The notes under the pieces: model-generated
Database searches by the model: none
What the model was told of the DNA's origin: nothing
Seen by the model: the letters and a program-made list of their open reading frames with translations, nothing else
Source: an uncultured Pseudomonadales bacterium
GTDB lineage: Bacteria > Pseudomonadota > Gammaproteobacteria > Pseudomonadales > Pseudohongiellaceae
DNA: 64,000 nt
Reading direction: 5' to 3'
Assembly: GCA_943789485.1 (NCBI GenBank)
Contig: CALSUH010000013.1
Location: 60,824 to 124,823, forward strand
Position numbers and translations under genes: made by a program
In this document: in pieces, positions 1,489-15,372 of the stretch
How the letters are laid out: each line of letters starts with the position of its first letter
Numbering within the stretch: the first letter of the stretch is position 1

Positions 1489-2400
1489 TTGTCCGAAAGG
1501 ACTCTTTTTGGCATTGGCTTCAGCACGTATTTTGTTGCCGGCTCGCTAACGGACTTCGCATGGAACGCAGCCAAAACAACAGCGTCAGATGCTCGCTTAG
1601 ACTCCCACATTAGCTTCCGTTATCAACAAGAAACCATCACCTGTGGCACTAACGTAACAGCCGAAGAGGCGGAACAAACTCACAAAAAAATTCAGCAACA
1701 GGCTTTAAACCAGGCGCCGAGCACAGCCCTGCTCGTTAAGATCCAGTCACATGAAAAAACGACTAAACAGATAATTGCCGCACAAAAGCGGCGCCACCAA
1801 ACCGTTAGCCTTTCAAAAACGCCGCCGTCTGTTCTTGCATTAATACTGGTGAACGCATTGCCCATTGTCGGGGTTTTGTTCTTAGACTGGACAATCGTCG
1901 AGGTCATTGTGCTCTATTGGTCTGAAAGTGCCGTGATCGGCATTTTTAACCTCTTCAAAATGTGGCTGATCGACCCTTGGGCGTCATTGATAGCAGCGCC
2001 TTTTTTCACCTTTCATTACGGCGGGTTTATGGCTAGTCACTTGCTACTTGTATATATCTTTGTATTACCCCAGGGGGGCCTGGCGACAGAGTTTTGGGAA
2101 GGCGGCTACGTTGTATCATTCTTCACACTGTCTTTTTTGGCACTGTTCGTGAGTCACGGACTCTCTTTCTTTCAGAATTTTATTGGCCGAATAGAATTCG
2201 TCGACAGAGACATCCGCGAGCAAATGGGTGAGCCCTATAGCCGCATCCTAATCATGCAATGTTCTTTATTACTCGGCGGGGTCATAGCGGGGGCGTTTGA
2301 TAGCGCTCTGCCAATCTTGCTGTTATTGATTTTGTTGAAAGCCGTAACCGACTTACGCGCACACCTTTTGGAGCATAAAACTGAGCTGAACTCTGGATGA
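1489..2400 (+). CDS. Polytopic membrane protein of unknown function (DUF6498-like C-terminal two thirds)
   Basis: 303-aa ORF whose only in-frame start is TTG at 1489. The C-terminal part has several hydrophobic helices (LALILVNALPIVGVLFLDWTIVEVIVLYWSESAVIGIFNLFKMW..). The family name comes from memory of that motif. Confidence 0.5.
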   Translation: MSERTLFGIGFSTYFVAGSLTDFAWNAAKTTASDARLDSHISFRYQQETITCGTNVTAEEAEQTHKKIQQQALNQAPSTALLVKIQSHEKTTKQIIAAQKRRHQTVSLSKTPPSVLALILVNALPIVGVLFLDWTIVEVIVLYWSESAVIGIFNLFKMWLIDPWASLIAAPFFTFHYGGFMASHLLLVYIFVLPQGGLATEFWEGGYVVSFFTLSFLALFVSHGLSFFQNFIGRIEFVDRDIREQMGEPYSRILIMQCSLLLGGVIAGAFDSALPILLLLILLKAVTDLRAHLLEHKTELNSG

Positions 2401-2777
2401 AGAGAACGGCTTGAGGATCGTTAAAAATCGTAGACTGAATCGCTATCACTTTACTAGGCACCTTTCAGTCATACAAAATGGCTGATGAAGACCTTTCTTC
2501 TGATACAAGAACTTTCATGGATTTATAAGAACCAGAGTTCCTCTTCGAGCATACAACCGTCGAGAATCATCTAACATTCCCGCCTATGTCTACGCTCCCG
2601 TCAGTGATAATTCCATCATTTTATGAGCCTCTGACTCTGATGGTTTAGAGTTTTCTGACAGTGCTTATACAGATCAAACTACTCTCGCCGTTGTTGCGAA
2701 TTGGTTTAGTGAACAGTCATTTTTTTTTGCCAAGGACTACGAACTAATTTTTGCATCCATATATCCTTAATTAAGTC

Positions 2778-2838
2778 TTACAACTCGTCCACAATAGTAT
2801 GTCTGCGTGTGAGATCGATCCATTCTGACTTATCGGGG
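2778..2838 (-). repeat. Family-A intergenic repeat, copy 1
   Basis: + strand reads ttacaac-tcgt-CCACAATAGTATGTctgcgtgtgagatcgatCCATTCTGACTTATCGGGG. It shares the CCAGAATAGT..CCATTCTGAnTTAnnGGGG frame with the other copies. Polarity is assigned relative to the flanking minus-strand genes. Confidence 0.7.
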
Positions 2839-3048
2839 TGTGACTCTAGGATGGAGTGCTGGCAGGGCGGTATGTGTAGGGGGGAGGCTAGCCTCCGGTA
2901 CTATTCACCAAGCCCCCCCCTGCTTTATTATCTTAAACCCTTCTTCATCAGAGGTAACATCTGAATCAGTCTCAAACGGTATTGGTTCGCAGCCAAGCAA
3001 CACAACCATTAACAAGGGTAATAGAACTAGCTTGATACCTAACTCATT

Positions 3049-3933
3049 CTAATCTAACAAATATTTTTGAAACCAAGCCAAACGAGCATTATTTGCCAAG
3101 ATTGCGTCTTCACCCCTGAAACCATGCTCCGCTCCGGGAATCACAATTAGTTCAGACTCAACCTGATGATTCTCGAACTGCTTCTTAATAGCATATGAAT
3201 GAGTGACATTAACTAAGGGATCAGCATCACCATGAACAAGAAGCGTAGGAGGGTCTCCAGCATCTACGAAAAGTATTGGAGCTACTGAAGGTATTAATTC
3301 TTCATCAAAGTCTAAAGCAGGAAACCTGCCTAAAAGTTCTTCTTGAGATACTGCATTAACGATACCCACCGCAGCAGACTCAGCCTCCCTGAATTCTACA
3401 GGAGGAAAATAAGCCACGACCGCTGCAACGGAATTGCCAATTTGCATTATCTCATCCGAATCATCAATCATGCCCGAATCAGAATCTAAGCCCGCCATTA
3501 AGGCAAGATGGCCACCAGCGCTTCCTCCAGTTACCCCTATTCTCTCTGAATCAATACCGAATCGCTCCGCATTCATTTTGATATGTCTAATTGCTCGGCT
3601 GACGTCAGAATAAGCGTCTGGAATGTGGTATCTCGGAGCACTTCCATGATAAACGGGAATCATCGTGAAACCAGCGTCAAGCATATCAGCGAATTGACGA
3701 GCTCGGTTTTCCGGAGGTGCCCATGATGAGTACCAGCCACCACTCATCATAAAAACGATCGCCGCCCCATTCGCATTCTCTGGCTGCAGAACGTCATACA
3801 CCAGGGCCATTCCATCTTTATGACCATAAACGATATCTGAGTCAAAGGTTACCTGCGCATGACTTATCAAGCCTGTGCCTATAAACCCAAACACTATTAA
3901 TAATTTTTCTGCTTTTCTAATAATTATACTCAC
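3049..3933 (-). CDS. Secreted alpha/beta hydrolase (esterase/lipase type, GGSAGG nucleophile elbow)
   Basis: ORF 3049..3981. The likely start is GTG at 3933, preceded by GAGGA. Signal-like N-terminus (LLIVFGFIGTGLISHAQ), Ser motif IGVTGGSAGGHLAL, and C-terminal HGDADPLV / GAEHGF. Confidence 0.8.
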   Translation of the reverse strand: MSIIIRKAEKLLIVFGFIGTGLISHAQVTFDSDIVYGHKDGMALVYDVLQPENANGAAIVFMMSGGWYSSWAPPENRARQFADMLDAGFTMIPVYHGSAPRYHIPDAYSDVSRAIRHIKMNAERFGIDSERIGVTGGSAGGHLALMAGLDSDSGMIDDSDEIMQIGNSVAAVVAYFPPVEFREAESAAVGIVNAVSQEELLGRFPALDFDEELIPSVAPILFVDAGDPPTLLVHGDADPLVNVTHSYAIKKQFENHQVESELIVIPGAEHGFRGEDAILANNARLAWFQKYLLD

Positions 3934-3990
3934 GCTTTTAATTTCCTCTAAGTAGGTACCCTGGCGAATAAAGCAAACCAAGTGGTATTA

Positions 3991-4053
3991 GCTAATACTT
4001 CGTAAAGAATAGTATGTATAGGGATGCAATGGAACCATTCTGACTTATCGGGG
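3991..4053 (-). repeat. Family-A intergenic repeat, copy 2
   Basis: + strand reads gctaatacttcgtAAAGAATAGTATGTATAGGGATGCAATGGAACCATTCTGACTTATCGGGG. It lies 58 bp upstream (gene strand) of the hydrolase start at 3933. Confidence 0.8.
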
Positions 4054-4348
4054 CAATGGTTGGGCGGTTTGTGAGAAAGTGCTGGACGCACTCATATAGG
4101 GCTATTCAGGTTTGATAGCGAAGAGAGCCTAGGCATGCGTACGACCTCTATCAGCCCCAAACAGGTCTCAATACCCCAATATCCTCGGTCAAGCCTCATC
4201 GAAGACCCGTTATTAAAATTTGCATGCACTACTTGTGTGAAGCGTTCGTCATCCCTTTCAAAAGTATGTATACAGTTATCAGCAGTACAAACATAAGTCT
4301 CTGCATTTGCAGCAACAGAAAAGTATGGTATTTGAAAACCCAGTTCCT

Positions 4349-4389
4349 CACCGCCGTTCGTCCAAAATAATATGTAGGAGCAGCACGGG
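4349..4389 (-). repeat. Family-A intergenic repeat, degenerate copy 2b
   Basis: caccgCCGTTCGTCCAAAATAATATGTAGGAGCAGCACGGG aligns with copy 6 (aaCCGTTCGTCCAGAATAGTCTGTATAGGGCTGCGATGG). The distal half has diverged. Confidence 0.45.
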
Positions 4390-4448
4390 CTGTCTATACA
4401 GAATTTCAGATGACTGAGCGCTATAGAGGCGCTAATGGTGCAGGCTAG

Positions 4449-4586
4449 TTAGTCTTCATTTTCGCTAACATCTTTTCCTGCCTCTTCCACCTGCAATTTT
4501 TTTAGTTCATTCTGATATTCTTCCTCAGAAAGTGCATGCCAACCAATACATTTTCCCGTTGGACTTCTACCACACCCACATTCCAT
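4449..4586 (-). CDS. Cys-rich mini-protein (45 aa), unknown function
   Basis: ATG at 4586 is preceded by GAGGAG. The product is MECGCGRSPTGKCIGWHALSEEEYQNELKKLQVEEAGKDVSENED. It sits between repeat copies 2b and 3 and is below the 60-aa cut-off of the ORF track. Confidence 0.5.
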   Translation of the reverse strand: MECGCGRSPTGKCIGWHALSEEEYQNELKKLQVEEAGKDVSENED

Positions 4587-4621
4587 AATTAACTCCTCAA
4601 CCTTGCCTTGTTTTTAGAAAA

Positions 4622-4676
4622 ACCTAACCATACGCCCAGAATAGTCTGTATAGAGGAGAGATGGAACCATCGTCTG
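4622..4676 (-). repeat. Family-A intergenic repeat, copy 3
   Basis: + strand reads ACCTAAC-catacgc-CCAGAATAGTCTGTATAGAGGAGAGATGGAACCATCGTCTG. It lies between the stop of the phosphotransferase gene (4726) and the start of the mini-ORF (4586). Confidence 0.8.
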
Positions 4677-4725
4677 CTTCGCCAACCTTAATCGCGCCTA
4701 GCACGGGACTATGGCATGCAATAAG

Positions 4726-5724
4726 CTATACCAGCAAAGAATGTGATCTCCCCAGCAGAGATTCCATGGAGTCCTTGGAGGTTTCCCACATTGGGTCATC
4801 GCGCTTGCCGCGACGATGTAGCATCAAGTTGAAACCGGTAATGATAGCAAACTTGTAAGAGGCCAACGCGCGATACCAATTAATGTCCGGCAGCTCCTCT
4901 GCATACGCGTCCACATACATAGCAATCAACTCATCGGCTTGCGGCATGAAGTGCCCTCGATGACCAGAGTCGTTCCAGGCAAGCGGGTCGTTGAAGGTAG
5001 CAAACCAACCAATATCGTTGAGCACCGGGCCGATGCCAACCAACTCCCAATCGATCACGGCAAGCAACTTACCCGTCTTCGCGAAGAACAGATTTGACCA
5101 CTGGAAGTCGCCGTGGAAGATGCCAATTGGGGCGCTAACCGGCAGTTTAGCTAAGAGTAACTTACGTACTTCCGGCACCAATGCCAAACTGTGTGGTTCT
5201 GCCGCCTTCTCGACGAAGCGGTCCCAGCGCACCACATCGTCCTCGAAGGCCATCGGCTCACCCAAGTAGTGCGCCTGGCGCCAATCCATGCGGTGGATTT
5301 TTACCAACGCGTCGATAGCCTGCTGTGCCATCCCAACTCGCGCAGATTTCTCAAGCGCTTCAACCCAGCCATCGCCCGTGAGCTTCACCACGTCGCCTTC
5401 TAACTGCGGCACTATGAAATAGGGACGACCAAACCATTGCGGATCATCCCCCGACCACTTAACCGTGCAGTGAGGAACCGAGTCTGGCATCACTGATAGC
5501 GCCGCGACCTGACGCAGCACGTCGGCAGTTCCCTGCAGTTTCACGCCCGGTGGAGGCAGGCGTATATACCATTTGTCTAAAGCGGAAGCTGTCTGCACGG
5601 AGAAGCCATAGGCAAAGCCGGCATGACCGGGCATCTTAAACACGTCCTTAACTTCTACCGCGTCATCTTGATAGTGGGCAAAACTAAATGAAATAAGTCG
5701 CCGCTGTAATTCTTCTAGTTCCAA
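4726..5724 (-). CDS. Phosphotransferase enzyme family protein (APH / choline-kinase-like fold)
   Basis: 332 aa. Brenner-type catalytic motif GIFHGDFQWSNLFF, followed by AVIDWELVGIGP. Confidence 0.8.
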   Translation of the reverse strand: MELEELQRRLISFSFAHYQDDAVEVKDVFKMPGHAGFAYGFSVQTASALDKWYIRLPPPGVKLQGTADVLRQVAALSVMPDSVPHCTVKWSGDDPQWFGRPYFIVPQLEGDVVKLTGDGWVEALEKSARVGMAQQAIDALVKIHRMDWRQAHYLGEPMAFEDDVVRWDRFVEKAAEPHSLALVPEVRKLLLAKLPVSAPIGIFHGDFQWSNLFFAKTGKLLAVIDWELVGIGPVLNDIGWFATFNDPLAWNDSGHRGHFMPQADELIAMYVDAYAEELPDINWYRALASYKFAIITGFNLMLHRRGKRDDPMWETSKDSMESLLGRSHSLLV

Positions 5725-5769
5725 GTTAACCTCATTGCATCAATCGGCAGTATAGCGAATACACCCTGT

Positions 5770-5833
5770 AGCCAACCGCTCCCCCACAATAGTATGTGTA
5801 CGGGTGCGATGGAACCTTTCTGCGTAAATGGGG
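5770..5833 (-). repeat. Family-A intergenic repeat, copy 4
   Basis: + strand reads AGCCAAC-cgctccc-CCACAATAGTATGTGTACGGGTGCGATGGAACCTTTCTGCGTAAATGGGG. It lies between the SMP-30 stop (5929) and the phosphotransferase start (5724). Confidence 0.8.
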
Positions 5834-5928
5834 ACCCCGGGGCGCAGGCTGGACGCTTACTAGGAAATACGGGGCGGGTACGAGAGCCTAGTTTCACGGG
5901 TCACCATGTTCTGTTTTCCTTGGGCTGG

Positions 5929-6957
5929 CTATGGAATTACACCACTAGTGCTTAACCGAATCCGATACAGCCCGGTTCTTGCGGTCATATATAGTGTGCT
6001 CCCATCATCGCCCCAAGCCACATTGGCTGGCACTTCTTCAGGTTTGATGGTGCCCAGATGATTACCGTCGGAATCGATAATCCATACACCGCCGGGGCCT
6101 GAGGCGAATAGGTTGCCATCGACATCAACCTTTAGGCCATCTGCCGCGCCAGTCTCGTTTTGATTGTTAGCATCAACAAACACGCGTCCGTCCCCGAGAC
6201 TGCCATCGTCCAAAACGTCATAAGCCATCCAGCCCATTTTGGCTCCATCGGAATTGGCTACATACAGTGTCTTCTCATCCGGGGAGAAGGCTATGCCGTT
6301 AGGGCGGGATTGTCCCGATTCGAGCAGGTCAAGCTGACCATCTGGGTGCAGACGATAGATACCATTAAAATCCAGTTCTCGCGCCGGGTCATCTTCTAAT
6401 CTGGCAAGTCCGTAGGGTGGATCAGTGAAATAAAGAGAGCCATCGGAATGCCAGGCCGAATCGTTGGGGCTGTTCAACCTCTTACCTTGATAATTATCTG
6501 CCAGCGTAGTGATAGTGCCGTCTCGCTCTCGACGCGATACTCGCCGATTACCGTGTTCAAGTAGTATTAGTAGACTCTCTGAGTTGATGTTCAGGCCATT
6601 GGAGCCCACAGAAGAGGAGTCACTCTCTCCCTCGAATACCGGATCCATAAAAGTGCGCAGACCATTCACGTCATCCCATAAATGAATAGCATTACTACGA
6701 AGGTCACTGAACATTAAATGTTGCTGTCTCTGGTGCCAAACCGGCCCTTCGGTGAAGGCAAATCCTCCTGCAAGTTTTTCTATAATAGCCCCGGCTGGAA
6801 TCAATGCATTTACTTTTGAATCTGCCCGATAAACATCACCTGCGCCGGCAGTTTCAGTGACGGCTTGAAACGCAGCCATCTGATTACATGCTGATAATGA
6901 GAGCAAAGAGATGAGGAGTAAAAAAGGCCTGGGAGACTTAATTAGGGGCTTATTCAT
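5929..6957 (-). CDS. SMP-30/gluconolactonase/LRE-family lipoprotein
   Basis: 342 aa. Lipobox LSLSAC. Beta-propeller hallmarks FTEGPVW, RLNSPNDSAW, YFTDPPYG, RPNGIAFSPDEKTLYV, DGLKVDVDGN. Confidence 0.85.
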   Translation of the reverse strand: MNKPLIKSPRPFLLLISLLSLSACNQMAAFQAVTETAGAGDVYRADSKVNALIPAGAIIEKLAGGFAFTEGPVWHQRQQHLMFSDLRSNAIHLWDDVNGLRTFMDPVFEGESDSSSVGSNGLNINSESLLILLEHGNRRVSRRERDGTITTLADNYQGKRLNSPNDSAWHSDGSLYFTDPPYGLARLEDDPARELDFNGIYRLHPDGQLDLLESGQSRPNGIAFSPDEKTLYVANSDGAKMGWMAYDVLDDGSLGDGRVFVDANNQNETGAADGLKVDVDGNLFASGPGGVWIIDSDGNHLGTIKPEEVPANVAWGDDGSTLYMTARTGLYRIRLSTSGVIP

Positions 6958-7192
6958 TCGAGTATCCTATTGTAGTTTTTCAAAAAACTATCTAATTAGC
7001 AGAGCAAGTCAGTCTTTTTTCCCAAACTAACACAAATCTATATGATGAGGGAGGTTCGAACGCTCTATTCCCTTGCTCTAGCAATCGCCTGTTCTATTCA
7101 AAGTCCTGACTATTAGGGCCCCCTGCAAACCCAATAAGCCGCAGGAAGATAGATTTGGAGCTGAGTAGTTTCATAGCTTTGTTCTCAGGGAT

Positions 7193-7253
7193 ACCTAACC
7201 ATAGTCCAGAATAGTATGAAGAGAGACGCGGGCCTTTATTTGAGAAAAGGGGG
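7193..7253 (-). repeat. Family-A intergenic repeat, copy 5 (distal half diverged)
   Basis: + strand reads ACCTAAC-catagt-CCAGAATAGTATGaagagagacgcgggcctttatttgagaaaaGGGGG. It shares the upstream tctcagggata with copy 6. Confidence 0.6.
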
Positions 7254-7547
7254 TACCGCGGGAGTTGGGCCTGGGGGATCTGATATTAGTTCTTAGCAAT
7301 GTTGGATTGCTGGTTTTCGGGAGTAGCAAAAACAACTGGAGGTACTTTTGGGAGTATGCATCCAGACACAAATTTTTATTACTATCTATAACAGATAGTT
7401 GCATCTTCAATGCAGTAGCACCCATTGCCACCCTATTTAATCTATATTTGAATAGCTACAAATCACCCCTTCGGTACTCATCTTTCAATACTAAGCATGG
7501 GTTACCGTAGGGATATTTTCGTACGATAATTTAGCATCTACTGCCTC

Positions 7548-7624
7548 AACCAAGCCCGAAGATACCCTCCCTCTACAAAACAGGAACACCCCCTCGTCTA
7601 TTTGGAACTTCAGTGGCAACACAT
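7548..7624. repeat. Family-B direct repeat, copy 1
   Basis: aaccaagcccgaagataccctccctctacAAAACAGGAACACCCCCTCGTCTATttggaacttcagtggcaacacatt. The 25-nt core at 7577-7601 is identical to 9839-9863. Confidence 0.8.
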
Positions 7625-7786
7625 TGTGTACAACTAATATTCAAGACATTCACAGGTTGATCAAACTCCAGCTGCTTGGAAATAACTACCGGGGCTGATC
7701 CGATTCGGCTATTCCAGCGTTTATTGATTATCGGTAGCTAATAGCAAGAAATGCAACAACAAAATCAGATCACTATGGAGAACACA

Positions 7787-8164
7787 ATGAACAGAAATTT
7801 CTACTCTGCCCTTCTCGTTTCAACATTACTTATCTTTCTATCATCCTGCGCGACGAATCCAAGCTCGTCTGTGGCAGATGGTACCTGGGATTTCACCATG
7901 AGCAGCCCCTTTGGAGCACTCACCGCCACGGTTATTATGACGGCCCAGGGCGATACACTGACTGGATCCTTTGATCTGGGTGACGGCCGCACCTGGCCGA
8001 TCGACGAAGGCGTAGCCCAAGGTAACGAGATCTCCTTCAGCCTTGACCGTGACGGTTCACCGATGGTCTACGATATGTCAGCCACCATAGAGGGTGATAG
8101 CATTAGCGGAACCGCCAGCGCCATGGGAACTGAAGTCCCTTGGACAATGACTCGCCGCAGCTAG
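7787..8164 (+). CDS. Small lipoprotein, unknown function
   Basis: ORF 7751..8164. The most plausible start is ATG at 7787 (GGAG upstream), giving MNRNFYSALLVSTLLIFLSSC (lipobox LSSC). Confidence 0.6.
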   Translation: MNRNFYSALLVSTLLIFLSSCATNPSSSVADGTWDFTMSSPFGALTATVIMTAQGDTLTGSFDLGDGRTWPIDEGVAQGNEISFSLDRDGSPMVYDMSATIEGDSISGTASAMGTEVPWTMTRRS

Positions 8165-8192
8165 TTTTGACATATCAAGGGGTAATGACAAC

Positions 8193-9725
8193 TTAAGGTG
8201 AGAGTTTCCCGCTGCGTATTGGTTTGCCAGGGAATACATCTGGCACCGCTTCTCCGCTCATAACCACCGCTACACCATTCACAAATACGTATTCGACTCC
8301 TTCCGAGAAACTAGGGCCGGTTTCGAAGGTCGCAGTATCGATAATGGTTTTTGGGTCGAACACCACAATGTCGGCATCAGCGCCAACCTGGAGTCTTCCC
8401 TTGCGAGCCATGTGAGGTGCTACATTTTCAAGTCGCCTCGCCGGCAGCAAAGTCATTTTTCTGAGAGCAGTTTCTAAATCAATTACTCCCTTCTCACGGA
8501 CGTACCGCCCCAGCACGCGTGAAAAGGTGCCGGCTGTACGCGGGTGTGCTCCCGGCTTATAAGGCATGCCATCCGATGCTACGATAACCCAGTCATTGCC
8601 AATCGCTTGATCGATCCACTCTTCTTGCATCATGTGAATAATTACTACGCCACCCTGCTGCCTATATTGTAAAAACGTCTCAGCATTTAACCTTTCACCC
8701 GTTGCCTGCCATTGCAGCCCATCATAGGAAATACCGTAACTCGATTGCCAGTCCCCGTCGAACAAAGCAGACTGAATACTGGTAGAACCGGCAGTGTATG
8801 GATAAGCCTCTGCGGTAACATCGACTCCACGCGCTTGCGCTCCCTGAATAAGCCTCAACACAGGATTGATATCTGCCAGACTGACAGAGTTAACATGCAC
8901 GATATGTAGCGAGGCGCCTGTAGCTGCAGCGTTGGCTATCACCTCTTGAACAGATGACAATCCTCGGCCACGAACATGAGTGAAGATTGGGACGTCTAAA
9001 TTTTTAGCAATCTCAAATAGATTAAATACCTCAGCGCTACTCGCTCCTGGATAGTAGGCATGAGGCATGCCAATACCTATAGCGCCTTCATTGAAGGCGC
9101 GTTCAAGCTCTTCTTGCAGAAGCTGTTCTCTTGCCGGTGGCAGCGGTGCATAAAAGGTCTCGCCGACGATAGACTGAATTCGCCCCAAGGGTTCTTCAAT
9201 TCGAACAGCCTCCGCCAACTGGCTGCGTAGAAATTCACGGTCTGCTTCTCTCTCGGTCAAAGCAAGAGCCCGGATTGCAGCATGTGATGCACTGGCACCA
9301 TAATTAACACGCGACCGACCACGCCTGGAGTCCAGAAAGCTGCCTACCTCTGCATAGCCCCATTCAAGTTCAAGGGCAGTTGTCACGCCATCTCTAACTT
9401 GATACTCATGTGCCTGGTCACTCTGTCCATGAACGTGTAGATCAATAAAGCCTGGAGCTACAACCAAGCCCTGAGCATTAATCTTTAACACCTGCTCATC
9501 GAGAACATCAGTGGAAGTCTCTGTGATAGCAACTATTCGGCCACCACTGACAGCGATATCTCGAATTGCATCCAGTCCAGTTTCAGGATCAATGACCCTC
9601 CCATTGTAAATTACTAGGTCAATGGGTTCATCGGCTGCCTGCGCATGAGCAGACCCAAGCGTGCCAAACACGCAGATTACAATAAGCGAAAATCGAAATC
9701 GCTCATAAAGAGTATTTAGTTGCAC
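8193..9725 (-). CDS. Secreted amidohydrolase, N-acyl-D-amino-acid deacylase (D-aminoacylase) family
   Basis: 510 aa. Signal peptide ending AHAQA, metal motif GFIDLHVHG, and later SDGMPY..HPRTAGTF, as recalled for D-aminoacylases. Confidence 0.75.
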   Translation of the reverse strand: MQLNTLYERFRFSLIVICVFGTLGSAHAQAADEPIDLVIYNGRVIDPETGLDAIRDIAVSGGRIVAITETSTDVLDEQVLKINAQGLVVAPGFIDLHVHGQSDQAHEYQVRDGVTTALELEWGYAEVGSFLDSRRGRSRVNYGASASHAAIRALALTEREADREFLRSQLAEAVRIEEPLGRIQSIVGETFYAPLPPAREQLLQEELERAFNEGAIGIGMPHAYYPGASSAEVFNLFEIAKNLDVPIFTHVRGRGLSSVQEVIANAAATGASLHIVHVNSVSLADINPVLRLIQGAQARGVDVTAEAYPYTAGSTSIQSALFDGDWQSSYGISYDGLQWQATGERLNAETFLQYRQQGGVVIIHMMQEEWIDQAIGNDWVIVASDGMPYKPGAHPRTAGTFSRVLGRYVREKGVIDLETALRKMTLLPARRLENVAPHMARKGRLQVGADADIVVFDPKTIIDTATFETGPSFSEGVEYVFVNGVAVVMSGEAVPDVFPGKPIRSGKLSP

Positions 9726-9809
9726 TTACTTTCTCCGTGGAATACAAAAATTGCGCCTTTCTCTGCGGATATCAAATACCGCTCCAAATTGAATTTTTTT
9801 TTCAGACAG

Positions 9810-9887
9810 AACCAAGCCTCGAGATACTCCCCCTTAGAAAAACAGGAACACCCCCTCGTCTATCTGTGACTCCAGCGGCAGCATTAT
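9810..9887. repeat. Family-B direct repeat, copy 2
   Basis: aaccaagcctcgagatactcccccttagaAAAACAGGAACACCCCCTCGTCTATctgtgactccagcggcagcattat, in the same orientation as copy 1. Confidence 0.8.
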
Positions 9888-9950
9888 CTCTAAACCCAAA
9901 TTTTTGAACTTCAGCTTATACCGGCTTTCGGCCAAGAGCAGTCGTTACAG

Positions 9951-11276
9951 TTACCTTGGTATCGCATAGCCTTGTACGGTAGGTTTCTGCTCAGCAACGC
10001 TATCCACGACCGACTGACTCACCACGTTTGTAAACCTCTGCCGAATGTTCAGTGGCCCGTGATTTGGTAGCTGGATGAACATAAGCCCAATCAGATCTTC
10101 GACCGGGTCTGCATAGTACAACGTGCCGCGAGCTCCACCCCAGCCGTAGCTGCCAGGGGACAAGGTATCAAATGAAACTGTCGGATCGATCAATACGCCG
10201 AAGCCTAAACCAAAACCGTATCCTGGCCCACGAACGTAAACATCCTTGTCGCCTGTATGATTGCTTATCATGAGATCGACGGTCATTCGACCGAGTAGCC
10301 GAACACCGTCTAGTTCTCCGCCGTTCGCGATCATCTGTGCGAAGCGAATATAGTCAGACGACGTACTATTCAGTCCACTAGTGCCAGGGAAGTAGGTAGT
10401 TGGCTCATTGAACTGTGGTGCTATTTGTAACTCGGCCTCGTTTGCTTCGTTCAGCATGTAGGTCGCCGCCACGCGGTCTACTTTGCTGCGAGGTATGTTG
10501 TAGAATGTGTCCACCATGCCTAGGGGCTCAAAAATCCGTTCCCGTAGAAACTGGTCAAGTGATTGACCAGAAATTTTCTCGACTAGTACGGCCACGAAAT
10601 CAGTTGATGTGCCGTACAACCAATGATCACCTGGGTGAAAGGTGCCTGGAATCATAGCAGCTCGAACAACACGCTCACCGAGCGTCGAGAACGGTTTACC
10701 GTTGTTACTTACCCACTGCATTTCCTCTTCAGATAGCCCAGCGTTTGCAGGATCGAGTGTTAGTCCTGAGGTATGGGTCAGCACATGGCGAATTGTGATT
10801 GGCCGCGCCTGGGGCACGCTTCGTTTGCGTGGCCCGTCGCTGTCCAGCACTAGGTGATCTGCATATTCCGGTATCCATTCCGAGATAGGATCGTCTAGCC
10901 GAAATCTTCCTTCTTCGAACAGCATCATCAGTGCGGTTGATACTATCGGTTTAGTCATCGATGCCAGATAAAAAATGGTATCGGTTGTCATTGGAATATC
11001 CTGCTCACGGTATTTCCAACCGAGCGCCGAGTGATGCACTATCTTACCGTGCCTAGCGACCAGTGTTACTGCGCCTGCGACCTGGTTGTCATCAATGAAT
11101 CGTTGGAAATACTCGTCGATTCGGGCTAAACGCTCTGTAGAAATTCCGACAGATTCCGGCCTTGCCGTTGGAAAGTTTTCTGACGCCCATCCAGTTACCG
11201 AAGTCGCCGCCAATAAGCCAGCGAGAAAAATTCCTCGAACAAAAATTCTTGCTAATTCACTCTGTTCTTTATTCAT
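9951..11276 (-). CDS. Secreted serine hydrolase, class C beta-lactamase / PBP4*-like family
   Basis: ORF 9951..11297. ATG at 11276 is preceded by GAAGGAG. SxxK motif in LASMTKPIVS; signal-like GLLAATSVTGWA. Confidence 0.8.
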   Translation of the reverse strand: MNKEQSELARIFVRGIFLAGLLAATSVTGWASENFPTARPESVGISTERLARIDEYFQRFIDDNQVAGAVTLVARHGKIVHHSALGWKYREQDIPMTTDTIFYLASMTKPIVSTALMMLFEEGRFRLDDPISEWIPEYADHLVLDSDGPRKRSVPQARPITIRHVLTHTSGLTLDPANAGLSEEEMQWVSNNGKPFSTLGERVVRAAMIPGTFHPGDHWLYGTSTDFVAVLVEKISGQSLDQFLRERIFEPLGMVDTFYNIPRSKVDRVAATYMLNEANEAELQIAPQFNEPTTYFPGTSGLNSTSSDYIRFAQMIANGGELDGVRLLGRMTVDLMISNHTGDKDVYVRGPGYGFGLGFGVLIDPTVSFDTLSPGSYGWGGARGTLYYADPVEDLIGLMFIQLPNHGPLNIRQRFTNVVSQSVVDSVAEQKPTVQGYAIPR

Positions 11277-11393
11277 CGGTCCCGCTCCTTCTCGCAAAAA
11301 GGTATAACAATTTTTAGTAGGTACTATCTTATCTCCTCAGCGCCAGCTCACTGCATTACTGCTTCCCGCCAAAAGTGAACACCAAAATCTCAA

Positions 11394-11930
11394 CTATCGC
11401 GCTTCGAATATTGCCTTATAGTGTGTCTCGTAATTCTCAGTCAAATCAACAAGGTCAGCCAGGTAGCGAGCAAACTCCTTGTTCGCGGCCATCAGCGCAA
11501 GCATTTCATTCTGTAGATTTTCAAAGTCTTGTGCTGACCATCCAACCAGATCACGTTGATTGAAACCTGCTCCGATCCCCATTCTGCCGTCTCGCGTTTT
11601 TTCCACTCGCAATTGTTTCAGAAACCGGGGTTCGCATTCCTTTTTCAATAGGTGAGTTCCTGTAGGCCTACGCTTGGTGCAAATGATGTCCATACGGGAA
11701 GAACTATTATTGGCATTAAAGAAATTATAAATTTCTGCTTCTTTCTCATCGATGCGAAGACGCAAACGGGCTAGAGACTTCTGACCCACGACTGTAATTT
11801 CTTCAATTGGTCTCGCCGTTGAAGCTGTGATTGTCGTGTCAGTAGAATCGGACTCTTGAGCGAAAGCCGTGCTGGTGACAAACCCAATCAGAATGCATGA
11901 AATAAACAGCTTTTGTAAGAGTCGAATCAT
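11394..11930 (-). CDS. Secreted protein, unknown function
   Basis: ORF 11394..11960. The internal ATG at 11930 gives MIRLLQKLFISCILIGFVTSTAFAQE (Sec signal). No recognisable catalytic motif. Confidence 0.55.
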   Translation of the reverse strand: MIRLLQKLFISCILIGFVTSTAFAQESDSTDTTITASTARPIEEITVVGQKSLARLRLRIDEKEAEIYNFFNANNSSSRMDIICTKRRPTGTHLLKKECEPRFLKQLRVEKTRDGRMGIGAGFNQRDLVGWSAQDFENLQNEMLALMAANKEFARYLADLVDLTENYETHYKAIFEAR

Positions 11931-12323
11931 AGGGAAAAATCCCGATTTTGTAACGCCCAATACTGACTATCGCAAGGCTTCATAGATACCAAGGACAAGC
12001 ACCAAAAGCAATGACTTTATTACCTTGGGTGTAGGCCTTAGAAGCTGAGCGTGTCTTCTGAGAGTTCCATAACTCAATGTTTACTCTGTACCAAGTCAAC
12101 TTTGTATGAGCACACTCAAGCGTGTAAAAAATCAGGAAGAAAAGACCTCAGAGACCTACTACTAGAATTTGGAGGAGTTAAGCTTGGCTAATTGGCTAAC
12201 ATCCTAGATGTAGATCGAAAGCATAAATATCGCTAATTGCTAGGGTATTCCTGACTGAAAGGTCAACTTCCGGCCAAAAGCGGACACTAGAACTGCTGTA
12301 TTCTAGCCTTGATTCCCCAATTT

Positions 12324-13841
12324 TTAGGGATTACGGCAAACAAAATTTTCGGCCTCATTGGTGCTACCACTACCATTGTAAACCGCTAGTTCTGGATACG
12401 GACAAAGCGGCCTACTTCTATCAACGGCGCCGTCAGTTCGATGAACTGCAATAATACTGTCCGGTGCAATATCTTTCTCCACCCAGTTTTCCAGCGCCGT
12501 AAGAGAATCAAAACTATTAGGCCCTGGGCCCCCGGCACAATGACCCATGCCTGGTGCCATAAACAACCGCATCGAATCATGAATCTTTTCTCGGCCTCCC
12601 ATAACAGTGCTGACTCTTTCATAGTATTGAGTTGCGTTTGCAGGAGATATTTGTGGATCACTCCAACCGTGATAAGCGATGAGCTTGCCACCAAGATCTA
12701 CAAATTCGAAAAGATCCGGATTTAATGCATTCAGAGTATCGTCGTCTTTCCTTTCGGCGCCAGCAACATCACGATCGAACTCAAAGCGATCGATTGTCCA
12801 GTCTTCATCTTCGTAGACTAAGTATCGATACTGCTCTAATCCGGTTACCCGGGCTGATTGAGTCCAACCAAGATCGGTCCAGCCCAATTCACTACCGGGT
12901 AACAATCCTGTTATAGGTCGACTCGTTCTAGGATTAATAGGAGAAGAGTAAATCATTTTGGCGGTGTTAACCTGCGCTTCTGACAAACAGGCACCGGCAT
13001 TGTTACTGTCGCATTTCAAAATCTCTAGATCGATTTCACACTGTGCTGGATTGCTTATAAGACCGTCTTGCACACCATCGTTGGTATCGCAAGAATCTAG
13101 GGCTGTTCGATAAAGTAATTCACGCTGTGCCTGCTTTAGTCGAGCAGATGGATTTGATTCAAGATGGGTTGCAATGCGTAAAGCTGCTGCAGCTCTACCA
13201 GTCCAATCGAGGCCCGGAGCGCCGGCTACAATCCCATCGAAATCAGCAGGAAATCGCTGCGCCTCTTTCATTGCTTGCCTACCACCAGCAGAGCACCCTG
13301 TGAAATAGGAATAGCGCAAACCGTCATCATAGTAGGTGTCGATTAAGGCTTTTGAGGTCACTGCCATCTCGTGAACCGCGCGCCAAGCGAAATCGTATAC
13401 TTTTTGGGGATGGCCAAGAGCGAAACTCGCTGTATTGCCCAGATGTCCCGTGTCGGTGGAACTAGACGCGTAGCCACGGCTTAATGGCATAGCCATGGCG
13501 GAGTGACGAACGTTTCCCGTAAAAGCCCCATTGCCAACGGCGAGATACTTGCCATTCCAGTTATCCGTAGGTAGCCACAATTCCATCTTAATGTCTGAAT
13601 CGGGAGTGGGCGTGAGAGTAAGCAACACGCGGCAGAACGCCGGTAAGTCCTGATACCTGCTCGAGCTGTTAGGATTGCCGCCCGATGGGGAAAAACTTCC
13701 TGCGGCAACAACTTCCGCTCTATCGACTATTACGTTTGGCAGCGAAAGTGAATTTAGACTTTCACAGAATTGCGCAAACGCGGCTGAAGGCAACAACAGG
13801 ACTAGAAAAATCGCTGACCAACTTGGAATTCGAATGAGCAT
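12324..13841 (-). CDS. Secreted tannase/feruloyl-esterase family hydrolase
   Basis: ORF 12324..13865. ATG at 13841 is preceded by GGAGAG. Signal LLLPSAAFAQ; family motif YFTGCSAGGRQAMKEAQRFPADFDGIVAGAPG. Confidence 0.8.
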   Translation of the reverse strand: MLIRIPSWSAIFLVLLLPSAAFAQFCESLNSLSLPNVIVDRAEVVAAGSFSPSGGNPNSSSRYQDLPAFCRVLLTLTPTPDSDIKMELWLPTDNWNGKYLAVGNGAFTGNVRHSAMAMPLSRGYASSSTDTGHLGNTASFALGHPQKVYDFAWRAVHEMAVTSKALIDTYYDDGLRYSYFTGCSAGGRQAMKEAQRFPADFDGIVAGAPGLDWTGRAAAALRIATHLESNPSARLKQAQRELLYRTALDSCDTNDGVQDGLISNPAQCEIDLEILKCDSNNAGACLSEAQVNTAKMIYSSPINPRTSRPITGLLPGSELGWTDLGWTQSARVTGLEQYRYLVYEDEDWTIDRFEFDRDVAGAERKDDDTLNALNPDLFEFVDLGGKLIAYHGWSDPQISPANATQYYERVSTVMGGREKIHDSMRLFMAPGMGHCAGGPGPNSFDSLTALENWVEKDIAPDSIIAVHRTDGAVDRSRPLCPYPELAVYNGSGSTNEAENFVCRNP

Positions 13842-14228
13842 GTATCTCTCCTCTCTCTTTTCCATCAGTTTTTGCTATACACCACTAGAAAATTAACATT
13901 TTTATGAAGCATATGCCCGCTTTGTAGGATAGTAGCCGTATCTTCTGGGTAAGTTCCCTATACGATCCCCTAAATATATGCCACAAAGCTTGAATCACCT
14001 TCGTCAAATCCTCCAATGATTTCGATAAGCACCTCAGTTTTAGCTTGTTGCTGTGCAGCTAAAGCTATTTTTTGAACTTGATCGAATTGCAACCCAACAA
14101 ATATAAGCGACCCTATAAGTGCGAATATGCCTATTACGCTGATAATTCGCTCTATGCCCCTTTCATCAGGTCTGCGAATAAAGGAAGCATTTTTATTGTT
14201 AGTAATTCTATAGGCTTTTCTCAGGGAT

Positions 14229-14290
14229 AATTAACCGTTCGTCCAGAATAGTCTGTATAGGGCTGCGATGGAACCATCCTGAATTAAGGG
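14229..14290 (-). repeat. Family-A intergenic repeat, copy 6
   Basis: + strand reads AATTAAC-cgttcgt-CCAGAATAGTCTGTATAGGGCTGCGATGGAACCATCCTGAATTAAGGG. An imperfect inverted repeat of its left end lies at 14311-14334. Confidence 0.8.
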
Positions 14291-14358
14291 CATGTGTCCC
14301 CCCGGCTGGGGTCTTGGCTGAACGATTGTTTGTCATTTCTAGGGGGTTATTTAGAAAT

Positions 14359-14646
14359 TTAGTGGAAGATTTGCGGTGTGCCAAAACTGATAATATTAAG
14401 CTGTTCACCGGCGGATACCCCACGCTCGTTCCATTCGGACACTGTCGAGCAGTGCCTTTTGCGTATACGACTGCGTATCGAGACTTCCCGGATACACAAT
14501 ATCTCGGTCCAGACCCTAAGCTGAACTGCGTTATAGGCGACGATTTCCTCATCCGACATCATATTAGGGTTCAATCGAGATCCATCATCAGTTGCACAGG
14601 CAGTCAATAGCACTAATAGCAATACGACGAAGGGCAGATTTTTCAT
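14359..14646 (-). CDS. Small lipoprotein, unknown function
   Basis: ORF 14359..14667. ATG at 14646 is preceded by GAGGA, giving MKNLPFVVLLLVLLTAC (lipobox LLTAC). Confidence 0.6.
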   Translation of the reverse strand: MKNLPFVVLLLVLLTACATDDGSRLNPNMMSDEEIVAYNAVQLRVWTEILCIREVSIRSRIRKRHCSTVSEWNERGVSAGEQLNIISFGTPQIFH

Positions 14647-14781: not shown

Positions 14782-14995
14782 TCAGCGAGACCTATCCAGT
14801 GTGAATACCGCGAAAACGCCATTGAATGCCTTGTCAACAGCATACGCCCTCCAGTTATCAGTCGCCAAGGCTATCGGCACTGCAATTAAGATTACTAAAA
14901 ATTCTACACTCAGTTGTTTAAAATTGATTTTCATGAAGAGTCACTCCAACAGCAATAGAAAAGCAGAGCAGGGTTATTGTTGTTAATAGTTTCAT
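14782..14995 (-). other. Two overlapping hydrophobic mini-ORFs (25 aa and 50 aa), or one 70-aa membrane protein split at a T4 run
   Basis: ATG at 14995 lies 2 nt after the SMR stop and gives MKLLTTITLLCFSIAVGVTLHENQF*. ATG at 14934 gives MKINFKQLSVEFLVILIAVPIALATDNWRAYAVDKAFNGVFAVFTLDRSR*. Removing one T from the run caaTTTTaaa would fuse them in frame. Confidence 0.3.
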
Positions 14996-14997
14996 AG

Positions 14998-15324: not shown

Positions 15325-15372
15325 CCTTGGATTTAATTCCTTATTATTTATAGCCTTACTCATGTGGAGTAA

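Follow-up and report, generated by a model that had tools for sequence, protein, structure and literature searches.

A previously undescribed family of co-oriented intergenic repeats in uncultured marine Gammaproteobacteria, with features of a putative portable promoter and 5' leader

Correia elements of Neisseria and the ERIC/IRU and REP/BIME/REPIN repeats are imperfect palindromes or carry terminal inverted repeats with target duplications, occur in both orientations, and in some cases bear outward promoters. In the Mycoplasma vsp/vlp/vsa loci, variable surface lipoproteins undergo phase variation through dedicated recombinases and short sites. Homologous sequences lying upstream of unrelated genes have been named putative mobile promoters (PMC3575422). 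Here we analyze a repeat array in a 64-kb stretch of DNA (the window) against this background, and compare it with the cassette arrays of integrons.

A sequence-only reading of the window had described seven co-oriented intergenic copies of a ~60-bp element, and all seven are present on one strand, the gene strand being minus (Table 1). Searches with two consensus halves (up to 3 mismatches) returned 5 and 4 matches, all on the + strand at 2.7-14.3 kb and none elsewhere in the 64-kb window, compared with 0.00 and 0.02 expected from dinucleotide shuffles. Using an nhmmer profile built from copies in other genomes, we find that these repeats are truncated members of an interspersed, lineage-specific intergenic family of uncultured marine Gammaproteobacteria that had until now not been described. 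The family element is ~105-135 nt long, and three window copies exceed the length first proposed. The supposed G-rich variable tail belongs to the family's conserved 5' part, which reads as C-rich on the gene strand, and GTTAGGT does not mark the element's end, since in several copies similarity runs ~15 nt further (TATTYCTGAGAA) with no sharp end. Other details held in part: the copy placed at 7193-7253 is homologous at 7182-7218 but not over the rest of that span, the orphan ACCTAAC at 3037-3043 exists as a lone 7-mer only, and the inverted repeat of the most upstream copy (14229-14249 vs. 14311-14334) matches, in the family consensus, a weak TAACCG...CGGTTA pairing with no compensatory change. 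The degenerate copy at 4354-4376 is detected only at a lax threshold.

Table 1 Element copies and associated genes of the window array
Feature	Position	Strand	Evidence
Element copy, nearly full length (profile 14-142), most upstream in the array	14218-14347	-	nhmmer E 1.9e-28; 20-nt consensus matched exactly
5' remnant of membrane-protein gene (150 aa) after copy 14218-14347; start codon lost, 3' part deleted	13929-14150	-	Comparison with L023
Tannase/feruloyl-esterase gene	12324-13865	-	Pfam PF07519, E 1e-110
Truncated copy, last third only (profile 105-142, from CATACTATTCTGG)	7182-7218	-	nhmmer E 8e-4
Signal-peptide-start remnant, 26 codons (MKLLSSKSIFLRLIGFAGG...), directly after copy 7182-7218	7094-7174	-	Sequence reading
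SMP-30/gluconolactonase-like gene; with flanking copies, a unit common to L006	5929-6957	-	Pfam PF08450
Element copy (profile 13-133); APH-family gene start 47 nt downstream	5768-5879	-	nhmmer E 3e-20
Phosphotransferase (APH family) gene	4726-5724	-	Pfam PF01636
Truncated copy, core and leader only (profile 82-142); 45-codon ORF 25 nt downstream	4611-4671	-	nhmmer E 1.8e-12
Cys-rich 45-codon ORF	4449-4586	-	ORF reading; no Pfam family
23-nt copy remnant (profile 103-125)	4354-4376	-	Alignment; E<0.01 at equivalent place in ten collinear loci
Truncated copy (profile 68-134); likely hydrolase GTG start (3934) ~53 nt downstream	3987-4053	-	nhmmer E 7.6e-18
Secreted alpha/beta-hydrolase (BD-FAE) gene	3049-3981	-	Pfam PF20434, E 1e-38
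Diverged copy (profile 30-141), last of array; no clear co-oriented gene after it	2765-2876	-	nhmmer E 1.4e-18; 71% identity to reference copy

A close relative (L023, 92-97% identity) has 342 nt extra in the region of 13929-14150 (L023 624-965), holding the remainder of the membrane-protein gene and a further element copy before the tannase gene; this copy, at 642-728 before the L023 orthologue, is deleted in the window genome. The variant represented by copy 14218-14347, flanks included, also occurs in L023 and L060. At the site of the truncated copy 7182-7218, profile 49-142 survives in L192, a strain of greater divergence, and profile 38-142 in the orthologous unit of L006, with window 5775-7218 and L006 3765-5218 matching at 90.5% between differing neighbours. 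The signal-peptide start MKLLSSKSIFLRLIGFAGG recurs after many copies elsewhere, and is intact and gene-fused in L003, L024, L025, L047 and L063. The unit formed by copy 4611-4671 and its small ORF is also found in L033, L038 and L046 at 84-88%, and an identical 45-aa protein is called in 23 or more contigs from public assemblies. The window array itself is collinear in ten independent assemblies (97.8-99.9% identity), and in this species it is a fixed, partly decayed remnant.

Across all data we count 333 copies, 126 of them at 65 loci in 25 species-representative genome assemblies (MAGs) and the other 207 in at least 120 metagenome contigs, with none in viral contigs. The family is confined to one clade and is spread over several contigs per genome. 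In the largest array, 15 co-oriented copies occupy 31 kb (~2.2 kb per copy) whatever direction the intervening genes take, and neighbouring copies overall share orientation in ~136 cases vs. ~19 with opposite orientation. The earlier description of co-oriented repeats parting mostly single-gene accessory units is borne out and proves general, with unit order and combination varying in other genomes. The 116 full copies fall into 67 downstream flank classes, and the unrelated flanks number 60 or more on either side.

The element is asymmetric, non-palindromic and tripartite. Read on the gene strand, its consensus comprises a ~70-nt C-rich 5' part (..CCCCACCCC-TTTCCTAGYAACCGCCCAGCCAGCACCCCACCCTAGGGGCACACCCCGATAAGTCAGAAT), a 30-nt core (GGTTCCATYGCACCCSTATACAKACTATT) and a ~25-nt leader (GTGGACGAACGGTTAGGTA) that stops just short of the ribosome-binding site and start codon of the next gene. 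Conservation is uneven, with a near-invariant core vs. 60-80% in the 5' part, and among copies outside the search-pattern selection the most conserved blocks are GGTTCCAT and TATACATACTATT, ~16 nt apart. A candidate 18-codon frame within the core carries non-synonymous changes, and one variant has no start codon for it.

We tentatively favour the interpretation that the element is a reused promoter and 5' leader module, and that homologous recombination can act on the core that its copies share. In 143 of 180 cases (79%) the first ORF of 100 aa or more beyond the element is co-oriented with it, at a median distance of 80 nt from element to start (25-55 nt for three window copies), and between co-directional genes the element runs along the genes 101 times and opposite to them 14 times. 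Truncation is also asymmetric: among 103 copies not picked by the search pattern, 36 have lost the 5' and kept the 3' end vs. 11 with the reverse, such that the gene-proximal end is preferentially kept, as in the window copies retaining profile 68-134, 82-142 and 105-142. Copies reduced to the 5' part break off immediately ahead of GGTTCC, at profile 82-86, those truncated at the 3' end stop mostly at 112-119, just after ACTATT, and in one subfamily a different ~170-nt leader is joined directly after ACTATT, likewise ending in a signal-peptide start. Judged from sequence, these boundaries would fit a promoter module.

A repeated promoter module had been the first alternative in the sequence-only reading and is the one favoured here. 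The -10-like TATTST lies in the block indicated there, overlapped by TACTAT. No recognisable -35 hexamer is present at 16-18 nt, with TGGTTC and TTCCAT each matching TTGACA at 2/6 positions. A consensus scan of the intact window copies likewise picked up no sigma-70-like site; an activator or alternative sigma factor would be required. The promoter scan did place a consensus sigma-70-like site, TAGACA-18-TATTAT, at 4396-4367 over the remnant 4354-4376, its second hexamer aligning with TACTAT. Several observations sit less comfortably with a promoter. Roughly 20% of the copies that have a core point towards a convergent ORF, among them 6 of the 15 in the largest array and some that are high-scoring; copies show no preference for divergent (23) over convergent (19) intergenic regions, in counts that ignore ORFs <100 aa, which are common here; and some gene families lie mostly upstream, not downstream, of the element. 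In addition, the invariant run of 13-17 bases (CTATACATACTATT) is longer than a -10 hexamer demands, and the C-rich 70-nt 5' part is given no role.

Under the promoter and leader interpretation, core and leader would together form a portable putative promoter and 5' untranslated leader, with the overlapping -10-like hexamers TACTAT/TATTST directing a predicted transcription start within GTGGACG. This putative module would have been placed before dozens of unrelated accessory genes, mostly encoding secreted proteins. Because many copies, within a genome and in neighbouring species, have 20-35 identical bases in common, they could act as homologous-recombination substrates, and exchange between them may re-associate promoter, gene and neighbour into co-oriented arrays that resemble integron cassettes. 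Linkage within the element bears on this exchange: variation in columns ~93-143 tracks the downstream flank and variation in columns 13-48 the upstream flank, while between-site association collapses across the invariant block at columns ~100-120, the pattern predicted for exchanges located in the longest stretch of identity.

The same collapse could also mark a dedicated crossover point. The element might be the recombination site used by a new, site-specific system of gene units ('cassettes'): an unlinked recombinase acting on double-stranded DNA would cross over in the invariant AT-rich block TATACATACTATT, and units with the right half-site at their 5' end would be excised, captured and reordered. 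The co-orientation of up to 15 copies in 31 kb regardless of gene direction, the excess of adjacent copies in the same orientation, the differing unit order between genomes, and the attachment of the left part to the upstream flank and of the right part to the downstream flank all agree with such a system; junctions of 3'-truncated copies and alternative leaders moreover cluster at profile 105-119, and invariance over ~30-50 nt is more than a promoter requires. We nevertheless consider it unlikely, as no type of recombinase is found repeatedly in the neighbourhood of the copies, and a tblastn search of 1.1 Mb using IntI1, XerC, Hin and gamma-delta resolvase as queries gave one match, a truncated intI that belongs with different, canonical attC sites. 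The consensus shows no inverted repetition between the two arms beside the AT-rich block. In addition, the linkage switch is gradual with no step, 5' ends are ragged, no empty/filled site pair was found, and the window array is static in ten assemblies.

It is similarly improbable, in our view, that the repeat is a selfish mobile element, non-autonomous and MITE-, REP- or PATE-like, which would be mobilised in trans, have no host function and owe its orientation bias to replication- or transcription-coupled insertion that is strand-specific. Hundreds of copies beside 60 or more unrelated flanks at either end, restriction to one clade over several contigs per genome, orientation correlated with local GC skew (34 loci vs. 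11), an IS200/RAYT-like ORF inside one array, the weak terminal inverted hexamers TAACCG...CGGTTA and copy decay in the window genome would all be in keeping with this origin. However, the element lacks subterminal hairpins, target-site duplications and a sharp 5' end, and no locus was found to be polymorphic for the presence or absence of the element by itself. Copies and flanks instead vary together, indicating that the duplicated unit is larger than the element; the contrast between near-invariant core and variable 5' part points to selection on the core, and it is the 3' end that is preferentially kept beside genes. The generic REP/MITE alternative raised earlier thus fits poorly with a non-palindromic element strongly co-oriented with genes.

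A structured cis-regulatory RNA (riboswitch or leader) or small RNA gene, suggested by the location 5' of genes and the strong sequence conservation, is very improbable given that Rfam gave no family match, either at the gathering threshold or with E relaxed to 1, shuffles fold better than the gene-strand consensus does (z +2.3), 89 copies yield no consensus structure on either strand, and no intrinsic terminator is present.

Least tenable is the main proposal of the sequence-only reading, that the copies are attC sites, with G|TTAGGT junctions, of a cassette array without integrase (CALIN). In its favour are a co-oriented array with heterogeneous accessory genes and small ORFs, a consensus ending near GTTAGGT that fits GTTRRRY, and a weak pairing scheme, with a single base bulged out, that recalls an R box and an L box about a spacer; integron remnants do occur in relatives. 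Yet bottom-strand folding, proposed there as a check, gave no attC-like hairpin: over 89 copies the mean z was +0.77, no better than shuffles (window copies -1.1 to +1.4). Controls from related contigs, two true attC sites and an attC-like palindrome of 98 nt, scored -4.4, -5.0 and -6.3, genuine attC sites of a related contig folding cleanly, and RNAalifold likewise recovered no consensus structure from either strand. Pairs of the putative R and L stems break uncompensated (e.g., C-G in 35 copies vs. C.A in 28), the 5' core is TAGTAAC where RYYYAAC is expected, and intI is absent from the window and from the surroundings of every array; in L127, canonical attC sites by an intI remnant have a different sequence and lie on the other strand. 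Linkage ties the element body to the gene downstream of it and not to the one upstream, with nothing changing at G|TTAGG, and the strain comparison suggested for unit presence/absence found the array invariant in the ten assemblies, which come from the same population, contrary to a cassette array. We therefore reject attC identity, which the fold, pairing, core, linkage, intI and synteny tests all contradict.

The resemblance to integron attC/CALIN arrays (Cury et al. 2016, PMC4889954) is accordingly one of architecture: co-oriented repeats between mostly single-gene, unrelated accessory units, some of them non-coding or with reversed genes, a short distance to the next start codon, no adjacent integrase, and units that occur in other combinations in other genomes. 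Unlike attC, the element has no palindrome or hairpin, R''/R' pair or compensatory change, travels mainly with its downstream gene with no G|TT junction, delimits larger units (~2.2 kb per copy in the largest array), and is unrelated in sequence to genuine attC of related contigs. Correia elements, ERIC/IRU and REP/BIME/REPIN are, like this family, short (~30-150 nt), clade-restricted, intergenic and multicopy, whereas the present element is asymmetric, unstructured and strongly gene-co-oriented. With the Mycoplasma vsp/vlp/vsa loci it has in common a conserved 5' non-coding region and signal-peptide start, tandem co-oriented genes with unrelated mature parts, and signal-peptide remnants before other genes, although the genes here belong to many families, of enzymes and ORFans, and have no linked recombinase. 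Compared with the putative mobile promoters of Nijveen, Matus-Garcia and van Passel (2012, PMC3575422), the element reaches a far higher copy number, forms tandem co-oriented arrays, has a long conserved part upstream of its putative promoter and includes some copies with no gene to drive, its promoter role here being putative; like them, it is a homologous non-coding sequence of ~100 nt directly upstream of many non-homologous genes that recurs within and between genomes.

The repeats of the window belong to a wider family. A whole-window repeat search returned one family of five 58-nt copies, all on the + strand (at 2779, 3994, 4626, 5774 and 14233), and a second, shorter family that adds position 7204. 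The two half-consensuses (≤3 mismatches) matched 5 and 4 times, exclusively on the + strand between 2.7 and 14.3 kb, vs. 0.00 and 0.02 expected in shuffled sequence, confirming that the copies noticed in the sequence-only reading are real. The one-directional array claimed there also stands: every substantial ORF of the stretch lies on the minus strand, and therefore, read on the gene strand, each copy is upstream of the next gene, at 25-55 nt from the start codon for three of the window copies.

When one genome of each bacterial species was scanned for the pattern GGTTCCATYKCNNCYNTAYACAKACTATTNT, 65 stretches from 25 assemblies matched, nearly all of them MAGs of marine Gammaproteobacteria/"Pseudomonadales" (sample origins of the element genomes: Arctic, Antarctic, Pacific, Arabian Sea and Caspian); at least 120 stretches matched in metagenome contigs and none in the viral contigs scanned. 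A profile made from the copies of these relatives yielded 126 copies in genome loci plus the window and at least 207 in metagenome loci. The element is longer and better preserved in these relatives (consensus ..CCCCACCCC.TTTCCTAGYAACCGCCCAGCCAGCACCCCACCCTAGGGGCACACCCCGATAAGTCAGAATGGTTCCATYGCACCCSTATACAKACTATTSTGGACGAACGGTTAGGTA, with a mid-part in two variants, GATAAGTCAGAATGG vs. CACTTGTCCAAGTAGG) than in the window, whose copies are truncated or diverged members spanning profile positions 30-141, 68-134, 82-142, 13-133, 105-142 and 14-142. Clustering of at least two co-oriented sites, as claimed for an array, was seen in the window (6-7 copies in 11.6 kb), in CASIAB010000011.1 (the largest array, with 15 co-oriented copies in 31 kb across five adjoining loci) and in CAWKZY010000023.1 (6 copies in 22 kb). 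A literature search found no report of the core sequence, and nothing in Rfam 15 matched the element, whether at the gathering threshold or with E relaxed to 1; as far as these tools show, the family is undescribed. We also observed short element-bearing contigs (1.9-6.8 kb; loci L005, L025, L041 and L053) in MAGs labelled Dehalococcoidia, Anaerolineae, Rhodospirillales and Flavobacteriales, which are most likely mis-binned island fragments because repeats break assemblies, as well as an inverted-duplication junction within the element, at which two 5' parts are fused head to head (...GATAAGTTCTGAATGCAACCATTCTGACTTATC...; locus L017, 615-727).

In copies not selected by the search pattern, the best-conserved blocks are GGTTCCAT and TATACATACTATT, with the 5' part 60-80% conserved (44% C and 17% G on the gene strand) and conservation declining past GGTTAG. 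Truncation is uneven, with 36 of 103 unselected copies having lost the 5' end and kept the 3' end vs. 11 showing the reverse. Copies made of the 5' part only end at profile positions 82-86, directly ahead of GGTTCC, and 3'-truncated copies end mostly at 112-119, directly past ACTATT, i.e., break points cluster at module borders. One subfamily joins ACTATT to another conserved leader of ~170 nt (TAAACCCTTGGATATAGCAGGTATGCCAG.GCCTTTATAGCCTCCAAATGCAGCGAATT...; no Rfam match) that again ends in a signal-peptide start; a possible hairpin with A-T/G-C covariation was noticed in this alternative leader. In the common variants the semi-conserved TGAGA after GGTTAGGTA is the ribosome-binding site, followed by an ATG within 10 nt.

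Counting ORFs of at least 100 aa, and missing the small genes that are frequent in arrays, we found that the next ORF was co-oriented with the element 143 times and convergent 37 times among the 333 copies listed (79% co-oriented, at a median distance of 80 nt). On the same basis, the element runs along the direction of co-directional gene pairs in 101 cases vs. 14 against it, with divergent and convergent intergenic regions holding about equal numbers (23 vs. 19 copies). The downstream genes are non-homologous, falling into 67 downstream flank classes for 116 full copies and into unrelated Pfam families; the element shows what marks a reused promoter, one homologous non-coding sequence placed immediately ahead of genes that are not homologous. 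The window stretch holds no intrinsic terminators, vs. 3.8 expected. We additionally observed a conserved ORF of ~79 aa (MQIKRLLNDIEVVAGDKLINSQ..., no Pfam family), divergent and ~70 nt upstream of the element, so that the repeated unit is ~450 nt long in the loci that have it; this ORF could be a trans-acting partner or merely a frequent neighbour.

Coordinates of genes, element remnants and associated features (L numbers denote element-bearing loci from other assemblies or metagenome contigs)
Feature	Position	Strand
BD-FAE alpha/beta hydrolase	window 3049-3981	minus
Element remnant, 23 nt	window 4354-4376	
45-codon ORF	window 4449-4586	minus
APH-family phosphotransferase	window 4726-5724	minus
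SMP-30/gluconolactonase-like gene	window 5929-6957	minus
Amidohydrolase	window 8193-9725	minus
Beta-lactamase-family gene	window 9951-11297	minus
Tannase	window 12324-13865	minus
SMR gene	window 14998-15363	minus
GFA gene	window 15373-15795	minus
Alternative-leader subfamily	L059 ~1400-1574; L040 ~3740-3900; L168 from 5230; L087 from 985; L082	
~79-aa ORF	L044 ~6270-6510 (CASIAB010000011.1 ~14270-14510); L117 7992-8231; L146 9386-9625; at least 7 other loci	
Canonical attC sites, 62 nt	L127 7603-7664 and 7901-7962	
98-nt near-perfect palindrome (second repeat family)	L117 2249-2346, 5463-5560 and 6749-6846; L146 4730-4828 and 7673-7770	

To follow which neighbour the element travels with, we sorted the 100-nt flanks of 116 full copies, which gave 68 classes upstream and 67 downstream. 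Pairs sharing only the upstream flank were above background identity in alignment columns 13-48, weakly so to ~94 and at background further on (from column 95), whereas pairs sharing only the downstream flank were at background in columns 13-24, moderately raised from 25 and strongly raised from 93 to the end; columns ~93-143 thus track the downstream flank. The element therefore travels mainly with its downstream gene. Columns ~49-96 form one block of associated sites, and this association collapses over the invariant columns ~100-120, with no change in linkage at G|TTAGG (columns 125-126), contrary to the proposed exchange at G|TTAGGT and to the attC pattern of a site carried in the upstream ORF's cassette. 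This graded switch, which lacks a step, is more in keeping with exchange inside the most conserved stretch than with a crossover at a fixed point, at a resolution limited by the lack of variable sites in the invariant stretch. In many copies, the upstream and downstream flanks match different array positions.

From these sequence comparisons, we tentatively favour the reading that core and leader form a reused promoter/5' leader module whose common core also acts as recombination homology and reshuffles units. Overlapping -10-like hexamers (TACTAT/TATTST) are predicted in the invariant block, and the start site would be expected in GTGGACG; among public contigs, look-ups for transcript ends matched metagenome assemblies only. 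The module would have been placed ahead of many unrelated accessory genes, mostly encoding secreted proteins, and its common core would give the homology for recombination by which units are reshuffled and arrays built. Such a module would explain why the element stands before start codons, keeps its gene-proximal end, has its module borders before GGTTCC and after ACTATT, is linked to the downstream gene, lacks structure and has no recombinase linked to it, and also why, in a degenerate window copy, the aligned position has turned into a sigma-70-like consensus site. It does not explain well the missing -35 hexamer (a promoter scan found no consensus -35 in the element), the ~20% of copies without a co-oriented gene, the length of the invariant block or the conserved C-rich 5' part. 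Purely speculatively, and in view of its composition and lack of structure, the C-rich part might insulate, e.g., by Rho-dependent termination of the upstream transcript. Other promoter types were set aside: by eye, the spacing or hexamers misfit the sigma-54, sigma-32, sigma-28 and ECF consensus motifs, and for a T7-type single-subunit polymerase promoter, which ACTAT(T)G resembles, there were no viral contigs with the element and no such polymerase was seen. An 18-codon frame in the core (MVPLHPYTYYCGRTVRYF) was likewise rejected as a leader peptide, its variation being non-synonymous and its ATG missing in one variant.

Our analysis also revealed that units are re-associated between species. 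For instance, the lactonase unit with both flanking copies (window 5775-7218) is 90.5% identical to positions 3765-5218 of locus L006, where it has other neighbours; the unit of a copy plus the 45-aa ORF recurs in three further loci (L033, L038 and L046), and a 520-aa unit is common to four loci in differing contexts. An 803-aa gene is inverted between two arrays in two MAGs, for which inversion between element copies was rejected, the breakpoints having no repeats. Within the window's own population, by contrast, nothing moves: at least 23 contigs encode precisely this 45-aa protein, and ten of them, from independent assemblies, are collinear over window 1500-7586 at 97.8-99.9% identity and carry the same truncated copies. 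The proposed unit-by-unit comparison between strains thus gave invariance across these ten assemblies, and different combinations of units in other species; invariance of the locus had itself been named as evidence against an integron. The nearest MAG (L023, 92-97% identical) differs by one 342-nt deletion, by which the window lost the element copy ahead of the tannase gene along with a portion of a small gene. Thus, what the window carries is the remnant of an array, fixed and eroding.

Further repeats and remnants were noticed in the window. A 150-aa membrane-protein gene (MSIERIINVIG...) common in arrays persists at 13929-14150 as a start-less, 3'-deleted remnant (compared with L023 624-1198). 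A second intergenic direct repeat of 74 nt, unrelated to the element, occurs at 7548-7621 and 9810-9883 (80% identical), with one copy upstream of the amidohydrolase gene, and also in L067 (8078-8269). A short inverted repeat at 14935-14997 (AACAACAATAACCC...TATTGCTGTTG), which separates the SMR gene from a 50-codon ORF and is conserved in L127 (8380-8440), folds weakly (z -0.9) and is too short for an attC site.

The element could instead mark a new site-specific system for shuffling or capturing gene units, integron-like but mechanistically different, which we consider unlikely. Its site would be asymmetric, double-stranded and ~105 nt long, would carry its own promoter and would ride at the 5' end of each unit, with the recombinase encoded elsewhere in the genome and crossover within the invariant block TATACATACTATT; the system would build and reshuffle ready-to-express accessory-gene arrays in abundant uncultured polar and temperate marine Gammaproteobacteria. 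Such a system would explain why copies are co-oriented whichever way the genes run, why the invariant block is long and why junctions cluster. As the sequence-only reading had stated, no intI was detected in the 64 kb of the window, and the 1.1 Mb of element-bearing loci held none except a truncated one in L127, tied to other, canonical attC sites. Tyrosine and serine recombinases were otherwise undetected in the window and this 1.1 Mb by tblastn with four query sequences, a screen and not proof. Clustering of neighbouring ORFs (333 and 831 ORFs) gave no recurrent recombinase-like family, and small ORFs near the element matched no Pfam family. Known site types fit poorly: the arms around TATACA/TACTAT are not inverted repeats, as a dif/Xer-like or lox/FRT-like core would have, and no Rfam hit on the element points to a tRNA- or tmRNA-derived attachment site. 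Inside one array we also observed a 249-aa ORF resembling an IS200/RAYT-type Y1 transposase (L040 6716-7465; CAWKZY010000023.1 14716-15465, minus), which just two loci have. In L061 (5799-7366), the element copy at 6083-6215 has two CRISPR repeats (Rfam CRISPR-DR4, 37 and 34 bits) on one side and, on the other, an ORF with an N-terminus like that of type I-F Cas1.

A selfish non-autonomous element also appears improbable. The REP/MITE alternative raised earlier finds little in the copies: in place of a palindrome or terminal inverted repeats there is just a 6-nt TAACCG/CGGTTA pairing with no hairpin, the flanks hold no target-site duplication, and neighbouring copies, rather than occurring in both orientations, are co-oriented in ~136 pairs vs. 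~19 opposed among the copies listed. The sole indel seen, between the window and L023, removed part of a gene as well, and no empty site was found among the 1.1 Mb of loci, all chosen for carrying the element. A structured RNA is very unlikely and effectively excluded, with no match to known RNA families in Rfam 15 and no consensus structure.

Least probable of all, and effectively excluded, is an integron attC site or CALIN. By definition, an attC site is an imperfect palindrome whose bottom strand folds into an R box, an unpaired central spacer, an L box with extrahelical bases and a variable terminal structure (PMC4889954). We looked for R'' RYYYAAC and R' GTTRRRY core sites at opposite ends and mutually complementary. 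The reported core fit holds insofar as the 3' end of the consensus has GTTAGGT, although unselected copies conserve that position at only 50-60%; at the 5' end the candidate core, TAGTAAC or TAGCAAC, does not satisfy RYYY, and its pairing with the 3' end requires a 2-3-nt bulge. The bottom-strand hairpin expected of attC did not appear, with a mean fold z of +0.77 in 89 near-complete copies (1% below -2) vs. -4.4, -5.0 and -6.3 in controls. Window copies (z -1.1 to +1.4) and the family consensus, folded on either strand as DNA or RNA, did no better than shuffles, and RNAalifold gave no consensus structure for the 89 copies on either strand. The sole R/L-box-like scheme (TAAC-CG/CG-GTTA plus CCA(G)CA/TGTGG) breaks without compensation, with one pair being C-G in 35 copies vs. 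C.A in 28 and another C-G in 46 vs. C.C in 25 (hand counts). Together with the downstream linkage, these results lead us to reject the integron cassette-array reading on which the earlier claim centred.

Two genuine attC sites and an attC-like palindrome from related contigs served as controls. The metagenome contig LWDU01033310.1 (L127) carries a truncated intI, a 133-aa ORF with 47.5% tblastn identity to IntI1 residues 14-74 and Pfam PF13495 over model positions 1-52 of 85, just the N-terminal SAM-like domain remaining. After it, three + strand cassette-like small genes are set apart by two 62-nt sites (ACACATAAC...GTTATGTGT) that differ by a compensatory pair and fold at z -3.5/-6.2 in one run and -4.4/-5.0 in another; this region (6092-8348) is a decayed integron. 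The element copy there lies 0.9 kb further on, on the opposite strand and with a different sequence. The 98-nt palindrome of L117 and L146, GACACTAAC-AATTT-AACAACTTAAG...CTTAAGTTGTT-ATCTT-GTTAGTGTC, resembles attC in the geometry of its boxes and spacer and folds strongly (z -6.3). Its copies, interleaved with those of the element within shared islands, may be clustered attC sites of the genuine kind. Ordinary integrons, with attC sites that are equally ordinary, are therefore present in these bacteria or once were. Beyond the readings considered here, the remaining probability belongs to some explanation we have not thought of.

If the promoter reading is true, the family would be an unusually clear natural case of promoter reuse, with one ~100-nt module ahead of at least 60 unrelated accessory genes in some two dozen species-level genomes. 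Its repeats would supply homology for flexible islands to exchange and reorder genes without a dedicated recombinase, a simple mechanism for "additive" islands in uncultured ocean bacteria, and a clade without genetic tools would gain, in the core, a candidate portable promoter. If the site-specific reading is true, this would be a second, mechanistically distinct cassette system. Assemblies broken at such repeats send island fragments into the bins of other phyla, and the arrays are liable to be taken for integrons.

An attC site travels with the upstream ORF up to the G|TT of R', whereas the element described here goes mainly with the gene downstream. Interspersed intergenic repeats and reused promoters are a known kind of thing (PMC3575422), of which the arrayed, co-oriented, unit-delimiting use across many species is an unusual variant.
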